A model generated the notes under the pieces. It was not told where the DNA came from, made no database searches, and saw only the letters and a program-made list of their open reading frames with translations. Shown here piece by piece: positions 50,885 to 61,480 of a stretch of 61,480 nt of DNA. Position numbers and translations under genes: made by a program. The stretch is from Patescibacteria group bacterium (lineage in GTDB: Bacteria > Patescibacteriota > Minisyncoccia > Phycocordibacterales > Phycocordibacteraceae). The stretch is taken from the NCBI GenBank assembly GCA_038062735.1, contig JBBTWN010000009.1, forward strand, positions 1 through 61,480, written 5' to 3'. How positions within the stretch are numbered: the first letter of the stretch is position 1; each line of letters begins with the position of its first letter.

Positions 50885-51056
50885 TTATCCACACTGAAGT
50901 TTTTTTAAGCATTGTTATAGTGCGTAGATATTCAATAATGAGTGTAAGCTTGTATTGCGACGCAGGAATGAGTGTTCGCACAACTCACTCATTCACCAGG
51001 TCGGGCGTCGAGCGCACTACAAGTCGTTTATTCACCAAACAAAAATAAAAAATTGT

Positions 51057-54711: not shown

Positions 54712-55047
54712 ATGGTACATCTACTACTACGTGTCCTCGGGGGTGCTGCGGCAGTGCTTGCTGCAGCGTATTTGGTACCTGGCATCCATGTCGCTGATTT
54801 TTATGTGGCGCTTATCGTTGCCATTTTACTCGGTATTATCGGTGTGACATTAAAGCCCATACTCGCCATTCTCACTCTGCCGATTACACTTCTGACATTC
54901 GGACTATTCTCGTTCATCATTAATGCAGCTATTCTGTGGTTTGTCGCTAGTTTTGTCGACGGGTTTGATATTGATACGTTTGTCGCTGCGCTCATAGGCT
55001 CGCTCGTTATATCAGTTGTACAGTGGGTGTTACATCGCATTGTGTGA
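54712..55047 (+). CDS. phage holin family 4 / DUF360 (YvlD-like) membrane protein
   Basis: AAAYLVPGIHVADF...LKPILAILTLPITLLTFGLFSFIINAAILW...VDGFDIDTF closely follows the family consensus. Confidence 0.85.
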   Translation: MVHLLLRVLGGAAAVLAAAYLVPGIHVADFYVALIVAILLGIIGVTLKPILAILTLPITLLTFGLFSFIINAAILWFVASFVDGFDIDTFVAALIGSLVISVVQWVLHRIV

Positions 55048-56049: not shown

Positions 56050-57459
56050 ATGAGCGCCTATCGCCCCACGATCGGGCTTGAGATCCATGCCGAGCTTAAG
56101 ACGCGCACCAAGATGTTTTGTACATCAAAGAACGACCCCGACGAAGAAAATCCGAATGTTAATGTGTGTCCCGTGTGTATGGCATATCCGGGGACCCTTC
56201 CCGTCGTTAACAAAGAAGCGGTGCACAGTGTACTGCGCGTTGGGGCTGCAGTCGGTGGGACCATAGCAGACTACACAGAGTTCGATAGAAAGAATTATTT
56301 TTATCCTGACATACCGAAGGGGTATCAGATATCACAGTACGAGTATCCTTTGGTAAAGGGGGGGGAGCTCGCCGGTGTAAAAATCACACGAATTCATCTT
56401 GAAGAAGATACAGCAAATGCAAAACACCGAGGGGATACAAGTCTCATCGATTTTAATCGTGCGGGCATGCCACTTATGGAGCTAGTTACAGAACCCGTTA
56501 TTCATGACGCGGTAACTGCAGGAAACTTTGCACGCGAGCTCCAACAGCTGCTTCGGGCACTCGGCGTTGCTGAGGCACAGATGGAGAAGGGGCAGATGCG
56601 CGTCGAAGTAAACATTTCAGTATCAAAAGATGATACGCTCGGCAAAAGAAGTGAAATCAAAAATATCAACTCGTTTCGTGCAGCAGAGCGTGCAATCGAG
56701 TTTGAAATAAAAAGACAGACAGCGGTCCTTGGGTCCGGGGGAGTGTTGCTGCAAGAGACTCGCGGGTTTGATGAAAATACTGGCGAGACGTTTAGTCAAC
56801 GACTCAAAGAGGATTCAAACGACTATCGTTACTTCCCTGACCCAGACATACCAAAGCTAAAAATTTCTGACATCCCAGAATTTGCTCGCGATGTTCTCGA
56901 TGCATCACTTCCTGAACTTCCAGCGACACGGCGAGCACGGCTCGTGGCACTTGGTGTGCGTCGAGAAGATGCAGATGTGCTTATCGCAGATCACTTGTAC
57001 GGCGCTTTTTTTGATGCGGAGGTTGCAGGACAACTCGCTCCTGGGCTGATCGGCAAAGGTTCAAACTATTTACTTACTGATGTTCGTGCAGTCGCCACTG
57101 AAAGTATGTTGAACAATTTGCGCAACGGCGTCTTTGGAGATGTGATTCGCATGACAGACGCTGGCGATCTATCAAGTCGCGGAACAAAAGATCTGTTACT
57201 TCGTCTTATGGAGAAGGGGGGTGATGCGCACACTGTTGCAGAAAAGGAGGGAATGCTTCAAATGAAGGACACGGCTCTCATCGAGCGCATTGTGGATGAG
57301 GTGGTTGTCGAGCACCAGGGTGTCGTTATGGAGGTCCAAAAGGGTAAGGAGGAGGCGATGAAGTTTTTAATTGGTATGGTCATGAAGAAGTCAAAAGGGG
57401 CAGCAAATCCAACTGATGCAGCAACGATCTTGAAGTCAAAGATTCAACAGAAGACTTAA
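56050..57459 (+). CDS. gatB: Asp/Glu-tRNA(Asn/Gln) amidotransferase subunit B
   Basis: PTIGLEIHAELKTRTKMFC, CPVCMAYPGTLP, and a C-terminal GatB/YqeY domain. Confidence 0.93.
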   Translation: MSAYRPTIGLEIHAELKTRTKMFCTSKNDPDEENPNVNVCPVCMAYPGTLPVVNKEAVHSVLRVGAAVGGTIADYTEFDRKNYFYPDIPKGYQISQYEYPLVKGGELAGVKITRIHLEEDTANAKHRGDTSLIDFNRAGMPLMELVTEPVIHDAVTAGNFARELQQLLRALGVAEAQMEKGQMRVEVNISVSKDDTLGKRSEIKNINSFRAAERAIEFEIKRQTAVLGSGGVLLQETRGFDENTGETFSQRLKEDSNDYRYFPDPDIPKLKISDIPEFARDVLDASLPELPATRRARLVALGVRREDADVLIADHLYGAFFDAEVAGQLAPGLIGKGSNYLLTDVRAVATESMLNNLRNGVFGDVIRMTDAGDLSSRGTKDLLLRLMEKGGDAHTVAEKEGMLQMKDTALIERIVDEVVVEHQGVVMEVQKGKEEAMKFLIGMVMKKSKGAANPTDAATILKSKIQQKT

Positions 57460-57535: not shown

Positions 57536-57880
57536 TTAAACAAGAAGGTTTTTTGCACTACGTCTGACAATAGTTTTGAATCTATGTTTAAGCAGGTAGC
57601 GCAATCTTGACTCAGTTCTGTGTGCGCTTCGCACATGGTCAAAGAGCCCGTTCTTTCTTTGGATTCGACGCTCATGGTACCCAGCAAAAACACGCACATC
57701 CCGAATAGGTCTCATTGTAGCTAGGATCGAGGCTATTCTCCCTCTAAGCTCCGCATACCAAACGTTTACCGTCTTCCTATTAATCTTGAGGAGCCGAGCC
57801 GCCTGAGATGCGGTCAGATCCTCTATATAGCAATCCACTATACGGGTTCGTGTTGCGAGTGGGAGTCGTGTGAATCGCAT
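57536..57880 (-). mobile_element. IS1595 (ISXO2-like) family transposase remnant, 114-aa ORF
   Basis: The N-terminus RLPLATRTRIVDCYIEDLTASQAARLLKINRKTVNVWYAELRGRI matches the HTH part of ISXO2-like transposases as I recall them. The DDE core is missing. Confidence 0.45.
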
Positions 57881-57991
57881 GATGTAAGTATATCATGAGA
57901 TACTGGTCTAGCTATAGACATCAAAAAAGTACCCACACCCAGAGGGGAAAAACCTCCGAAGTGGGTATATAATTAAGGTTAGAAATAAACC

Positions 57992-58558
57992 ATGGATGAA
58001 GTAGTGATCAGTGGAAAAAAATATATTTCATCAAAGCGAGCAGCACGCACATCTGGATACGCACCAGACTACATCGGCCAACTCGTACGTGAGAGCAAAT
58101 TGCAGGCAGTAAAGGTCGGCAGGGCGTGGTTTGTGGCTGAGATGGGCTTGCAAGAGCTTGTAGCAGGGCCAGGAGAGCTTTCAGTCATAGCATCTTCAGC
58201 TACACTTCCTGAAACTTGGTCTCCGGTGATCTATATGAAAGATGATGCACCGTTGTACCCGATAGCACAAGAAAATAAAATCTCGGATACTCGAGAAAAT
58301 GATGATTTAAGCCACCATGCTGAAGAAAAAGTTGTAAAATCAGTTGAAATTATGAAAATTGCTCTACCAAAACGATCAAATGGCATTTCTCTCGATGGTA
58401 TTAAGCAAATTCCTAAGGAGATTAAGGCTATAGGCGCAGTTTCTATCTCTGTTACTCCAAAGCGTAGAGTATCCAGACTAGTTGGATACGCGCTTTCAGT
58501 TCTCTTTGGTGTTTTGTTTGTGACCATTCTCGTTTTTCTGATTTCACTTTTCTACTAA
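57992..58558 (+). CDS. tail-anchored protein with N-terminal excisionase/MerR-like HTH
   Basis: KKYISSKRAARTSGYAPDYIGQLVRESKLQAVKVGRAWFVAEMGLQEL (HTH_17-like). The C-terminus is the TM segment LVGYALSVLFGVLFVTILVFLISLFY. Confidence 0.6.
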   Translation: MDEVVISGKKYISSKRAARTSGYAPDYIGQLVRESKLQAVKVGRAWFVAEMGLQELVAGPGELSVIASSATLPETWSPVIYMKDDAPLYPIAQENKISDTRENDDLSHHAEEKVVKSVEIMKIALPKRSNGISLDGIKQIPKEIKAIGAVSISVTPKRRVSRLVGYALSVLFGVLFVTILVFLISLFY

Positions 58559-58647
58559 TTTTTCTTTCAAATTCTTATCAACACCAAGCGCATATTTTGC
58601 GTCCGAGATGGAGATATGAGTAGTAAAATATAGATAAATCGGAAATC

Positions 58648-61480
58648 ATGAGTATCAGCGAGATCGAAGAAATTTGGATAACATCTCGCGATGCGTCGGA
58701 GAGATTTGGCTACACATCAGACTACGTAGCTTTTTTATGTCGGACAGGAAAAATAATTGCACGTCGCGCTGGTCGCTCGTGGAAGATTTCTGAAATTTCA
58801 ATTTCAGAATTTGCATCTCGAGCTCGACAGGCTGAAGAGATACGGCACACAAAGCTTCGAGAAGAGCGTAGAAAAGAATATATCCGCCGCGCGGCACTTT
58901 TGTCGCCACAATCTGCTGGCCTCTCATTGTCAACACGTCGTGCGATGGGTAATGTTGCTGGCGCTCTTATTTTACTGTTTGCTTTTTCGTTTGGTGCCTA
59001 TGCACTGCCAAGCACAATTATAGGTAAGTCGTTTGCAAACATTGGCACGGTAGTGCAAAGCCTACCATTTGGTTTTGAAAGAAATATTGCAAGTGCCTTG
59101 GTCGCAGTCTCTGACGTTGTCTCCGGAGAAACGCGCACCACGACTATCCCGCACCTCGCCTTTTCTTGGTTTGATTTTTTCGACAAAGTTAAAATGGCAC
59201 TCTTTGGTGAGCCAGCTCCAACCGCAATTGTTCAAGCTCCGATCGCGTCATCAACGCAACCCAGAGCTCAACCGACGGTTACTATTGTTGAGAAAAATGT
59301 TGGACCGACAACAGTCGTGCGTAATGTATCCGAGTACGTAACCGTAACAGGAGTTACATACGCTGAACTCGAGGCGGCGATCAAGGCGCTTGAAGCTCGT
59401 TTAATTTCACTCATCCCACAGGTGGTTCCATTTTCTGGCACTCCACCAATCACCGTAGTGAACACACAGACGTTCGCACAAAGCCAGCGCATCGATTCGC
59501 TTGACGGTGTGACGATCACGAACGCAAACATTATCGGTGGCACTATCACGGGCATCAGCGGTTTAGGTGGCGGTTCTGGAACTGTTGCATCAGGTACCGT
59601 TGGTCAAATCGCGTACTACAATGCTAACGGCTCTACCCTGTCAGCGACATCATCGATTTTTGTTTCTGATACCCAGCGTATTGGTATCGCCACGTCGTCG
59701 CCGCTCGCACAACTTACGGTGTATGGTGACGTACTTTTGTCAGGTGCAAATCGCTATTTGAATTTTGGTGATGCAAATGGTGTGTCCGGCTACGGCATTC
59801 GCGACAACGCCGGCATTATCGAATTTAAAAACTTGAGTGGCGGTTGGTCTGCATTAGGCTCTAGCGGTACCGGTGGCGGGACCTGGTCAACAACAACATC
59901 ATCGGTGGCAGGCGTGCTCGTAAACTATTCAAACAATTCGTCTGACATCGTCGCTATTGGTTCTACGGGGACCACGACAGCAGAATACTGGTTTGATCCA
60001 AATACGCTTATGGCGTATTTTTCTGGCAACGTTGGCCTTTCAACCACGACCCCTTTTGCTAAACTCGCCGTTCAAGCCACTGCTGGTCAAACTAACCCTG
60101 TATTCCAGGTTTCTTCCTCATCAAATGCAGTTAATTTCTTGACGGTTGCTGGTGACGGTTTTGGAACCACAACCCTCACCGGTCTTAACGTAAGTGGCTC
60201 CGCCACCTCCACCTCAAACGTCGGTTTTAACATCACCACGGGCTGCTTCGCCATTAACGGCACCTGCTTAGGTTCAAGTGCCTTCACCTCGATAGGCCCC
60301 GCCGGCCAACTCCAGATAGGACCAAACGTGACCCTTGCAACCAGCTCCTCTGCCTTCAACGGTCTCACTTCTTCAACCACCATCACCGGCTCAGGAAACG
60401 TCATCACCTTCACCAATACTTTGGCAGGTCTCCTCGGTGCTGCAGGTGGCGGTACTGGTCTCTCCTCCATCACGCAGAATCAACTCCTCATTGGTGGAGC
60501 AGGAAATACGTGGGTACAAATCGCCACCTCATCACTCGGCATAAACTTCTCTTCACTCATCGGCACAGCATCTGACGCACAAGTCGACAACAACCTCACG
60601 ATCTCAGGAGGAACCATCGACAATACTCCGATTGGTGCGACGACACCAAGTACCGGAGTGTTTACGAACTCGACGAGTACGAATGCGACCACCACAAACC
60701 AAAACATTTCAGGGTCACTCGTGGTCACCGGGACTTCAACACTTGCAACCACCTCACTTTCACAATTCTCGATAACCGGCATCGGCACCTCAACCATTGC
60801 AAATAATCTTTCACTCGGTGGTGATATCGAAGCGAATCAACTCTTCTTGAACGGTGCGACATCAACTGCTGCAAATGGTTTCAACATCGCCACAGGTTGT
60901 TTTGCTGTGAACGGTGTGTGCATCACATCAGGATCATCAGGTATCACCGCCATTGGTCCAACAGGTCAGACACAAACCGGCCCGACAGTAACTTTTGCAA
61001 CTTCTTCTGTCGCGTTTAACGGTTTGACTTCTTCGACGACAATCACTGGGGCTGGCAACACACTGACATTTACAAATACTTTGGCCGGCATTCTCGGTGC
61101 AGCCGGCGGAGGTACCGGTCTCTCATCCATCACACAGAATCAACTCTTGGTTGGTGGAGCAGGAAACACTTGGGTACAAATCGCCACCTCATCCCTCGGT
61201 ATCAACTTCACCGACCTTGTCGGATCTGCAACAGACAGCCAAGTCGACAACAACCTAACGATTGTCGCTGGAACCATCGACAATACTCCGATTGGTGCAA
61301 CCACTCCATCAACGGGAGTGTTTACGAACAGCACTTCAAGCAACGCCACCTCCACAAACCTCGCTGTCTCAAGTGCACTCACTGTTTCTGGCACATCAAC
61401 GCTCGCTACCACTTCAGTTGCACGACTCACCCTCGCCAATTTGACCGGCCTCCTCCGTGCCACTGCCGGTGTCGTCTCCA
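58648..61480 (+). CDS. giant HTH-TM-beta-repeat surface protein, 5' part (more than 944 codons, open at the window end). NOT in the supplied ORF track.
   Basis: Manual translation of the phase of nt 58648 gives an ATG followed by 944 codons with no stop up to nt 61480. N-terminal HTH similar to the 57992 gene, TM at about aa 101-120, then a T/S/G/N-rich repeat region. Confidence 0.85.
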   Translation, partial: MSISEIEEIWITSRDASERFGYTSDYVAFLCRTGKIIARRAGRSWKISEISISEFASRARQAEEIRHTKLREERRKEYIRRAALLSPQSAGLSLSTRRAMGNVAGALILLFAFSFGAYALPSTIIGKSFANIGTVVQSLPFGFERNIASALVAVSDVVSGETRTTTIPHLAFSWFDFFDKVKMALFGEPAPTAIVQAPIASSTQPRAQPTVTIVEKNVGPTTVVRNVSEYVTVTGVTYAELEAAIKALEARLISLIPQVVPFSGTPPITVVNTQTFAQSQRIDSLDGVTITNANIIGGTITGISGLGGGSGTVASGTVGQIAYYNANGSTLSATSSIFVSDTQRIGIATSSPLAQLTVYGDVLLSGANRYLNFGDANGVSGYGIRDNAGIIEFKNLSGGWSALGSSGTGGGTWSTTTSSVAGVLVNYSNNSSDIVAIGSTGTTTAEYWFDPNTLMAYFSGNVGLSTTTPFAKLAVQATAGQTNPVFQVSSSSNAVNFLTVAGDGFGTTTLTGLNVSGSATSTSNVGFNITTGCFAINGTCLGSSAFTSIGPAGQLQIGPNVTLATSSSAFNGLTSSTTITGSGNVITFTNTLAGLLGAAGGGTGLSSITQNQLLIGGAGNTWVQIATSSLGINFSSLIGTASDAQVDNNLTISGGTIDNTPIGATTPSTGVFTNSTSTNATTTNQNISGSLVVTGTSTLATTSLSQFSITGIGTSTIANNLSLGGDIEANQLFLNGATSTAANGFNIATGCFAVNGVCITSGSSGITAIGPTGQTQTGPTVTFATSSVAFNGLTSSTTITGAGNTLTFTNTLAGILGAAGGGTGLSSITQNQLLVGGAGNTWVQIATSSLGINFTDLVGSATDSQVDNNLTIVAGTIDNTPIGATTPSTGVFTNSTSSNATSTNLAVSSALTVSGTSTLATTSVARLTLANLTGLLRATAGVVS
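60196..60852 (+). repeat. tandem coding repeat, copy 1 (about 218 aa unit)
   Basis: GFNITTGCFAINGTC...TQNQLLIGGAGNTWVQIATSSLGINF...GTIDNTPIGATTPSTGVFTNSTS aligns with copy 2 at a period of 654 nt. Confidence 0.8.
60853..61480 (+). repeat. tandem coding repeat, copy 2 (truncated by the window end)
   Basis: GFNIATGCFAVNGVC...TQNQLLVGGAGNTWVQIATSSLGINF...GTIDNTPIGATTPSTGVFTNSTS. Confidence 0.8.

Follow-up and report, generated by a model that had tools for sequence, protein, structure and literature searches.

What does a DNA-binding fold do at the inner face of the membrane, at the base of a giant surface protein and again in the small protein encoded beside it? The question is raised by two adjacent genes in a stretch of 61,480 nucleotides (nt) of DNA (hereafter referred to as the window) from a Patescibacteria group bacterium (assembly GCA_038062735.1, contig JBBTWN010000009.1). 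On the plus strand, gatB (56050-57459) is followed by a short open reading frame (ORF) at 57992-58558, a gap of 89 nt and a giant ORF that starts at 58648. The short gene, as judged from the ORF, its homologues and a structural model, encodes a tail-anchored membrane protein of 188 amino acids (aa) composed of a winged helix-turn-helix (HTH) domain, a disordered linker and a C-terminal transmembrane helix. The giant ORF is open at the window end, and its translated 5' part (58648-61480, plus strand) corresponds to at least 944 aa of a type-II (N-in) anchored surface protein, of which the window holds the N-terminal part while the distal end lies beyond it. The two proteins share a homologous N-terminal domain, and the gene pair recurs in dozens of related species. 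The most likely reading, put forward tentatively and at somewhat less than an even chance, is a predicted binding of DNA by membrane-tethered domains, through which the gene pair would be autoregulated and/or kept close to the membrane.

The original prediction had stated that the two proteins begin with related segments of the excisionase type, and the resemblance lies far beyond chance. The segments align without gaps, with 16 identities and 29 positives in 48 positions (BLASTP E=5e-9). The Smith-Waterman score of the two N-termini is 90, as compared to 22.6 +/- 4.4 for 5000 shuffled sequences, none of which reached 90 (z=15), and a comparison by hhalign of a profile of 52 short-family proteins with a profile of 34 giant-type N-termini gave a probability of 99.4% and E=5.4e-22 over 69 columns. 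The prediction had also regarded the pair as a duplicated module; the homology of the modules stands, and a recent local duplication does not. Each HTH scores best on the hidden Markov model of its own family (short HTH, 105 bits vs 67 bits with the profile of the other family; giant HTH, 74 vs 39 bits), and the two thus represent old paralogous lineages, each separately conserved.

The affiliation of the domain was examined with the Pfam family HTH_17 (PF12728), for which the gathering cut-off is 27 bits. The first 64 residues of the window giant score 26.0 bits (E=1.1e-5), just below the cut-off, and the first 59 residues of the window short protein 14.9 bits (E=0.032), also below it; the profile match that had been foreseen is found at the level of the families, where 40 of 46 diverse domain copies from both match HTH_17 at E<=0.01 (best E-value 2.4e-11). 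Orthologous giants score 27.9, 29.8 and 52.2 bits, and the sequences P0106 and P0130 reach 61.3 and 50.9 bits, respectively. Judged from these scores, both families appear to belong to the HTH_17 superfamily, with the two window copies as divergent members, and the excisionase-type assignment, borderline for the two window sequences alone, appears solid at the family level. A joint profile of both families restricted to the HTH identified TraN, a DNA-binding protein of a type IV secretion system, as the sole sequence-level match in the PDB (E=8.6e-5); the full-length short-family profile retrieved only spurious transmembrane matches from the PDB sequences, TraN being found solely by the HTH-only profile. 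Neither protein matched a model of NCBIfam at E<=1, the BldC model NF033787 (cut-off 77 bits) included, and no match to the Pfam families MerR and MerR_1 and no effector domain were found in either. The OmpR/PhoB-type Trans_reg_C family of Pfam was likewise not matched by either protein, the likeness to ToxR and CadC being one of overall topology only; the RodZ-type HTH_25 and DUF4115 families of Pfam had no match in either protein, and PHROG had none for the short or the giant protein.

Structural models obtained with AlphaFold2 (AF2) agree with this assignment. For the short protein, modelled from an alignment of 52 sequences, the predicted local distance difference test (pLDDT) exceeds 90 at residues 1-58; a disordered stretch of about 100 residues follows, and then a helix at 160-187. 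Residues 1-58 (57992-58165, plus strand) form the winged HTH, with strands at 3-6 and 9-13, helices at 14-21 and 25-33, wing strands at 39-42 and 45-49 and a last helix at 50-58. The winged HTH of the giant occupies residues 9-58 (58672-58821, plus strand; pLDDT 96-98), its N-terminus being modelled as a strand at 10-12, helices at 13-20 and 24-33, wing strands at 38-41 and 44-48, a continuous helix at 49-85 and a transmembrane helix at 94-118. The winged-helix layout (first helix, turn, second helix, two-stranded wing, third helix) is thus present in both models at pLDDT >90, with an extra N-terminal strand or hairpin in both relative to the BldC-type proteins. In Foldseek searches with both models the best geometrical matches were the Pukovnik Xis protein (root-mean-square deviation (rmsd) 1.1-1.4 A, target TM-score 0.71-0.77), BldC (0.72-0.80), RacA, RdfS and TraN, which bears out the excisionase-type fold. 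For the short domain alone the values are 1.1 A and 0.74-0.77 for Xis (4j2n) and 0.72-0.79 for BldC, with RacA, RdfS and TraN also matched; for the giant domain they are 1.3 A for Xis, 0.76-0.80 for BldC and 0.62-0.65 for RacA. The Foldseek E-values are modest (best 8e-3) since the domain is small. The published helix and strand boundaries of BldC (PMC5859096) nearly equal those of both modelled domains.

Both HTH domains are placed in the cytoplasm by the distribution of lysine and arginine (K+R), counted in the 15 positions before and after the transmembrane helix. The short family has 3.9 such residues before the helix vs 0.7 after it, with an excess on the N-side in 77 of 82 proteins, and the giant family 2.2 vs 1.0, with an excess on the N-side in 50 and on the C-side in six; this enrichment indicates a cytoplasmic HTH in both proteins. 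The giant is thus of membrane type II, its whole bulk lying outside, and the short protein is tail-anchored. The earlier description of each protein, a single transmembrane helix with essentially no ectodomain in the one and with more than 820 extracellular residues in the other, was borne out.

The tail anchor of the short protein is a C-terminal helix of residues ~163-188 (58478-58555, plus strand; AF2 helix 160-187), its hydrophobic core spanning 163-188 of the 188 residues, and the sequence KRRVSR forms its K/R-rich N-flank. Homologues of the short protein number 63, with lengths of 180-330 aa, and all names given by the sources are of the Parcubacteria group or Patescibacteria (Paceibacterota, Adlerbacteria). 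The N-terminus of the short family, MDE(L/V).ISGKKYISS, is conserved from Met1, and the consensus continues as MDEL.ISGKKYISSKRAA..GY..DYIGQL.R.GK....VGRAW.V, with S13, Y23, D26, Y27, I28, G29, Q30, R33, G43, R44 and W46 invariant. Some members carry two HTH copies. A second conserved element lies in the cytoplasmic linker, where the motif P.TWS.V.Y..DD.PL.P occupies residues 73-90 (58208-58261, plus strand). Its family form in the 52 short-family sequences is P.TW..[VI].Y..DD.PL.P, with Y81 invariant and P90 at least 90% conserved; the motif is retained in the two-HTH members and is modelled without secondary structure at pLDDT 72-75.

The last HTH helix of the giant is continued as a long charged helix of 37 residues that leads to the membrane (residues 49-85; 58792-58902, plus strand; pLDDT ~98) and bears a conserved stripe of R66, L70, R74 and E77, columns that are invariant in seven to eight divergent giants. 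The single transmembrane helix follows as a signal anchor at residues ~100-120 (58945-59007, plus strand; AF2 helix 94-118), with its hydropathy peak at residue 103 and two arginines on the N-side. Beyond it lies a repetitive extracellular region rich in Ser, Thr, Gly and Asn (59008-61480, plus strand), with at least 820 residues after the membrane. This region includes a direct repeat of 660 nt (220 aa) at 60284-60583 and 60944-61243 with 72% identity; Tandem Repeats Finder gave no result on the giant because the period of 660 nt exceeds its limit. The ectodomain in the window has no match in Pfam, PDB, NCBIfam or PHROG.

The nature of the distal part can be read from orthologues. Peptidase_S74 is an intramolecular chaperone of trimeric endosialidase and tail-fibre proteins. 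Among seven complete giant orthologues, it was found in three (L079, 32.9 bits; L027, 33.5 bits; L054, 93.5 bits; cut-off 22 bits) and not in the other four (L083, L060, L068 and L057); Bact_surface_Ig-like domains occur in four of the seven and LVIVD in one. The N-terminal 944 aa of the window giant show no match to Peptidase_S74, a domain to be sought in the distal part beyond the window end. The giants are probably trimeric fibres, since the orthologues carry endosialidase-chaperone and Ig-like domains, and receptor-binding fibres typically combine, as these proteins do, a conserved module near the membrane with a distal part that varies. Thus, as seen through its orthologues, the giant is probably a surface fibre that resembles phage tail fibres, being trimeric and variable at the tip, with a probable role in host attachment.

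The distribution of the gene pair was surveyed with one genome per species, which yielded 377 matching stretches. Locus counts were taken from the best 80 of these, all of which belong to Patescibacteria, some carrying an unconfirmed third-party Saccharibacteria label; the loci are phylogenetically related, and the counts overstate their independence. Sixty-two loci are informative in that their sequence continues for 1 kb or more downstream, and a giant-type ORF with HTH and transmembrane helix lies within 2 kb downstream on the same strand in 58 of them, an affirmative answer to the question, posed earlier, whether HTH_17-transmembrane proteins recur beside giant repeat proteins. In 67 of 73 loci the gene directly upstream of the short one is gatB, and the window itself has the defined pair, with gatB upstream and the short gene followed within 2 kb on the same strand by the giant HTH-transmembrane gene. 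The contig end cuts 45 of the 58 giant-type genes, the longest of these encoding more than 3009 aa, and the large complete proteins have 1080-2791 aa and, in L005, 8120 aa; for complete orthologues of the window giant, lengths of 2175-2791 aa are reached. Repetitive giant genes break metagenome assemblies, and protein databases therefore hold mostly N-terminal fragments of 80-230 aa. The same order extends to a set of six more distant genomes (L004-L007 and L009, L008 being cut by the contig end), in which a short homologue follows gatB and the next gene encodes an N-terminal HTH, then a charged helix and a transmembrane helix, with downstream genes of 504, >1316, 2640 and 8120 aa.

The four exceptions among the 62 loci consist of one assembly gap and three species in which the downstream gene and its upstream TTATCCACA box (see below) are present without the HTH, which is therefore dispensable in some lineages. 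These three genes (L087, 9287-11251; L071, 1905-2531; L029, 4822-5415) start directly with a signal or transmembrane segment. Variants of the arrangement were also observed. In four species (L021, 9923-15118; L039, 9992-14320; L077; L081) the short-type HTH is itself joined to a large protein (1442-1731 aa or contig-cut), and a separate giant-type HTH gene was not detected there, a picture that a merger of the two genes or the loss of one would give. A third HTH-transmembrane gene occurs a few kb downstream, ~18-20 kb into the loci, in L055, L065, L074 and L054, preceded by the TTATCCACA box in L054 and L055; the module has thus expanded into small paralogue clusters in some genomes.

The first 258 aa of the giant retrieved only one close relative in a word-index search, and the wider set of giant N-termini was reached via an alignment of N-termini from the syntenic loci. 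Among 1.84 billion representatives searched with a profile, 9920 clusters matched at E<=1e-3 and 405 did so at E<=1e-30, with lengths up to 5777 aa and with two to three tandem HTH copies in many members of 300-400 aa. As far as sampled, the conserved pair does not extend beyond the Parcubacteria group of Patescibacteria, in which the two families accompany each other.

A comparison of non-coding DNA across 64-82 loci revealed short words at fixed positions. The window has only two TTATCMACA sites in its 61 kb, both on the plus strand: a TTATCCACA box (50885-50893) directly after the murB stop, with the longest secA ORF starting 87 nt downstream of it (50972), and a variant, TTATCAACA (58575-58583), 73 nt upstream of the giant ATG. 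When one mismatch is allowed, 55 of 64 giant-type genes have a TTATCCACA box 60-111 nt upstream, as compared to a background of 0.19 per kb; the usual distance to the ATG is 68-80 nt and the overall range 51-111 nt. The related TATCCACA occurs at most 450 nt upstream of secA in 50 of 55 related loci. The TATCCACA box is strongly biased in orientation, with 113 sites on the gene strand vs nine on the opposite strand, and only 18 of the 113 lie away from secA and giant-type genes. The box is a DnaA-box-like word and suggests a regulator common to secA and the fibre genes, be it DnaA, the HTH-transmembrane proteins or another factor. It was also considered as a general promoter word, and the sites concentrate upstream of secA and giant-type genes; an oriC element is unlikely, the box being single and at a fixed distance from gene starts.

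Closer to the giant gene, cross-species alignment delineates a promoter-proximal element at 58603-58642 (plus strand), with CCGAGAT at 58603-58609, a -10-like TAAAAT at 58624-58629 and AAATCGG at 58636-58642, which together form an imperfect inverted repeat around the -10-like box. The order across species is the TTATCCACA box, CCGAAAT, a -10-like TAAAAT or TATTAT and A[AT]TTCGG. The last word is found near the giant ATG on the top strand in 22 of 64 loci and on the bottom strand in 24, against a background of 0.127 per kb per strand, an enrichment of ~60-fold, and the A[AT]TTCGG words in the gene-pair promoters stand mostly in inverted, not direct, orientation. In the repeat before the giant gene 75% of cells are complementary vs 19-47% in slid controls, with many G-T oppositions, and RNAalifold detected no consensus structure in the giant-gene leaders, for which an RNA hairpin or riboswitch had been considered. 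The core of the optimised BldC site CAATTCGGACAATTCGGACA (PMC5859096) equals A[AT]TTCGG.

The short gene has a different set of upstream words. In the window a perfect 7-bp inverted repeat, TACCCAC (57930-57936) and GTGGGTA (57961-57967), abuts TATAAT (57968-57973), the whole extending over 57930-57973 of the plus strand; the repeat holds a nested GAGG..CCTC, and its left arm is a TATCCACA box with one mismatch (TACCCACA). TATAAT lies 18 nt before the short-gene ATG in the clade of the window, which differs in this from the Kaiserbacteria-like clade (L017-L079), where TGTGCACA stands at -47, AGCCGAGATA at -24 and a TATACT ends ~7 nt before the ATG, so that the short-gene mRNA is probably leaderless there. 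The combination CCGAGAT-N4-7-TAWAMT occurs 29 times in 1.1 Mb, 28 times upstream of short genes. A canonical sigma-70 promoter scan (-35/-10) detected none near either gene, and in the sequence of the window by itself the words are degenerate and show no statistical enrichment; their support lies in cross-species conservation. Two further observations concern the short gene. An inverted repeat, TCTCGTCT-N5-7-AGACGAGA, lies 13-18 nt after its stop in 26 of 64 loci (L018-L064), with some variants changed on both sides (TCTTGT/ACAAGA) and with the CGAGAT word of the short-gene promoter inside it; an operator, or a terminator that lacks a T-run, would be possible functions. A full promoter-type element, CCGAGATATGGCT(A/T)(C/T)ATATAAT, is found inside the coding region of the short gene in L005 (8339) and L014 (8594) and may be an internal promoter.

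Competence for DNA binding was assessed by aligning the BldC contact residues (PMC5859096) by hand to the two families, the correspondences being inferred. The phosphate contact K33 corresponds to R33, invariant in both families, and the wing residue R47 to R44, conserved in 80% of the short family and as R/K in 69% of the giant family. The base-reading R30 is R/K in 76% of giant-type domains and an invariant Gln in the short family; T29 is always Gly in the short family, whereas Ser, Ala or Gly take its place in giant-type domains; in both families T27 is replaced by an almost invariant Tyr and K26 by an almost invariant Asp (D26). The net charge of the domain core is +4.6 in the short and +2.2 in the giant family. 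This residue pattern would be compatible with DNA binding via a modified recognition helix, and the partly kept BldC contacts, the net positive charge, the tandem HTH arrays and the BldC-like promoter half-sites together make the functional evidence lean to DNA binding over docking.

Under the preferred reading, both winged HTH domains would bind DNA at the inner membrane face, notably promoter elements of their own gene pair. Candidate targets are the inverted A[AT]TTCGG-type half-sites around the -10-like box of the giant gene and the ATCTCGG word in the spacer of the short-gene promoter. The count of membrane-inserted copies would feed back on transcription and so control a very expensive protein, and the locus might be kept at the membrane beside the Sec machinery during export of the very long chain; secA and the giant gene share the upstream TTATCCACA box. 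An extended version, which we consider improbable, makes the giant fibre itself a transmembrane DNA-binding protein that, with its tail-anchored paralogue, would couple the chromosome, or the fibre and secA promoters, to the site at which the fibre crosses the membrane, so that host contact or fibre load would be read out in transcription, possibly after release of the HTH by proteolysis. In the literature searched, no bacterial precedent was found for a single protein that connects an adhesion fibre outside the cell with DNA.

Several points weigh against DNA binding with autoregulation. The canonical base contacts of BldC appear to be altered, with K26 changed to D26 in both families and R30 and T29 to Gln and Gly in the short family. 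Both window domains fall under the HTH_17 cut-off, the Foldseek E-values are weak, and the protein-binding MerR-like proteins CbpM and DafA are also among the structural matches. The promoter words are degenerate and not enriched in the window itself, and they could be core promoter, terminator or sites of another factor, for instance DnaA for TTATCCACA; the G-T oppositions fit RNA pairing better than a DNA palindrome, yet RNAalifold shows no fold. Three lineages have the box on the downstream gene and no HTH, and the loci share ancestry, the counts thus not being independent events.

Some of these points are shared by an alternative in which the winged HTHs would be protein-protein modules that dock the short protein to the fibre base, or both to a cytoplasmic partner, as an anchoring or assembly platform. 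The HTH of RodZ binds MreB, and the MerR-like CbpM and DafA bind chaperones. The presence of the latter two among the structural matches would suit docking, as would the strict co-occurrence of the two paralogues (58 of 62 loci), the recognition helix altered at canonical contacts (D26 in both families; G29 and Q30 invariant in the short family), exposed residues of helix 2 that are near-invariant across hundreds of species, as for a conserved protein partner, the linker motif of the short protein, which hints at further protein contacts, and the loss of the HTH from the downstream gene in three lineages. Docking is nevertheless judged rather unlikely, since most of the closest fold relatives, and TraN as the sole sequence-level PDB match, bind DNA through the same surface, the net positive domains keep R33 and the wing Arg, tandem HTH arrays suit a repeated ligand such as DNA, and the gene-pair promoters contain BldC-like half-sites. 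In a further alternative, the winged HTHs would bind DNA with little specificity as a tether between nucleoid and membrane, attaching the chromosome to the latter or to the base of the fibre in very small cells, in the manner of RacA or Noc, or serving as a mechanical anchor for the loaded fibre. Here the structural match to RacA (TM-score 0.62-0.65), a MerR-like winged HTH with a long helix and an anchor of DNA at the cell pole, carries weight, the giant having the same HTH-plus-long-helix layout; a trimeric fibre would show at least three HTH copies, some members having two to three per chain, and the pair behaves like a core gene set next to housekeeping genes. Such a tether leaves the conserved words specific to the gene-pair promoters unexplained and gives no account of why two distinct paralogous HTH types persist, and we take it to be unlikely.

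The layout of HTH, one transmembrane helix and large ectodomain is also that of one-component membrane-bound regulators, and orthologous ectodomains contain autoproteolytic Peptidase_S74 domains, which could point to ToxR/CadC-like or Notch-like signalling, the ectodomain sensing host contact and the HTH acting directly or after proteolytic release. This is considered highly unlikely, for the short partner is essentially without an ectodomain and therefore cannot sense the outside, the ectodomains are hypervariable fibre modules and not sensor domains, and no protease or signalling gene is conserved in the loci examined. HTH_17 is typical of excisionases, and an HTH_28/HTH_23 gene lies next door on the other strand; a chance resemblance, or a mobile-element remnant in the form of a prophage excisionase fused by accident, has nonetheless a negligible probability and was ruled out by the shuffles (0 of 5000 reached the score), the profile-profile match (E=5e-22), the conserved position beside gatB in dozens of species and the want of a PHROG match for the short or giant protein; no integrase was seen in the loci with tabulated genes.

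Membrane-bound HTH proteins (ToxR, CadC, RodZ) and HTH_17 domains are already known separately. BldC, Xis, RdfS and TraN share the fold with the present proteins, which keep the wing Arg and the Arg equivalent to K33 and nearly match the secondary-structure boundaries of BldC, and the tandem HTH copies recall TraN, with its two tandem domains, and head-to-tail arrays. BldC binds cooperatively head-to-tail to AATT-N4-C direct repeats, and its site AATTCGG resembles the conserved promoter half-site A[AT]TTCGG. These proteins are, however, small and soluble, BldC being a stand-alone protein of ~68 aa, whereas here the domain is joined to a transmembrane helix in proteins of 188 and >944 aa, and once also to an ectodomain of several thousand residues. 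Classical MerR regulators have a coiled-coil dimerisation helix and a C-terminal effector domain, whereas the long helix of the giant leads into the transmembrane helix. RacA of Bacillus subtilis likewise combines a MerR-like winged HTH with a long helix and fastens DNA to a membrane-associated site; it reaches the membrane via DivIVA, without transmembrane helix or ectodomain, its sites are GC-rich, and its relation to the two families is one of fold only.

ToxR, TcpP and CadC share a cytoplasmic N-terminal DNA-binding domain, a single transmembrane helix and an extracytoplasmic C-terminal part, but their winged helix is of the OmpR/PhoB type (Trans_reg_C) and their periplasmic sensor is compact, as compared to the excisionase-type domain, the giant fibre and the partner without ectodomain described here. 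RodZ is similarly bitopic, with an N-terminal cytoplasmic HTH, one transmembrane helix and an outside domain, and is a precedent for an HTH that binds protein (MreB); its Xre-type HTH (HTH_25) and DUF4115 are unrelated in sequence. On the outside, the orthologous giants resemble phage tail fibres, endosialidase tailspikes and the trimeric fibre adhesins of Bdellovibrio in having Peptidase_S74 and Ig-like tips behind long, repetitive shafts rich in Ser, Thr and Gly, and likewise in the conserved N-terminal anchor and variable distal part; phage fibres are docked on a baseplate, whereas the giants are anchored in their own membrane by an N-terminal transmembrane helix with a cytoplasmic HTH. In the literature searched, the coverage of which is incomplete, neither an HTH of the excisionase/BldC type with a transmembrane helix as its tether nor such an HTH fused to a giant fibre, with a tail-anchored paralogue adjoining, was found to have been described.

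Parcubacteria and other candidate phyla radiation (CPR) bacteria are thought to live attached to host cells. To our knowledge, how CPR bacteria attach and how they control a few costly giant surface proteins is largely unknown. The gene pair suggests a previously undescribed physical link between DNA and a cell-surface fibre, and the locus provides a widely conserved, testable object, with a fibre gene that includes an intracellular DNA-binding fold, a dedicated small partner, pair-specific promoter elements and a box shared with secA. If the HTH binds DNA, it would represent a new layout for membrane-tethered gene control or a coupling of transcription and export for a protein of 2000-8000 residues, and if it binds protein, a new anchoring module for giant fibres. 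Either way, fibre genes in fragmented metagenomes can be traced in practice by their conserved N-terminal module.

Some further features of the loci were observed. A protein of 114 aa with HTH_28/HTH_23 is encoded divergently between gatB and the short gene (57536-57880, minus strand; phrog_9697, E=2.8e-8). An opposite-strand gene of 114 aa is present at the same position in the close relatives L001 and L002 and in L005, and homologues of the protein were found by blastp in the loci of three of 80 species; a soluble regulator specific to the clade, or a remnant derived from a transposase, may be represented by it. Medium-sized downstream proteins in L007 (9422-10936), L044 (10201-11085) and L071 (2617-3459) have in common the unannotated ectodomain motif GD[IL][VI]S[FY]D ... 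[FY]GVVV[KQ][ND]P ... SG, and ATP synthase genes follow the medium-sized gene in L007 (Pfam matches) and L044 (read from ORF sequences). Between secA and obg, a membrane protein of 111 aa of the Phage_holin_4_2 family is encoded at 54712-55047; it is kept in many related loci (L001, L004, L005 and L009) and behaves as a gene of the housekeeping context, not as a phage gene.

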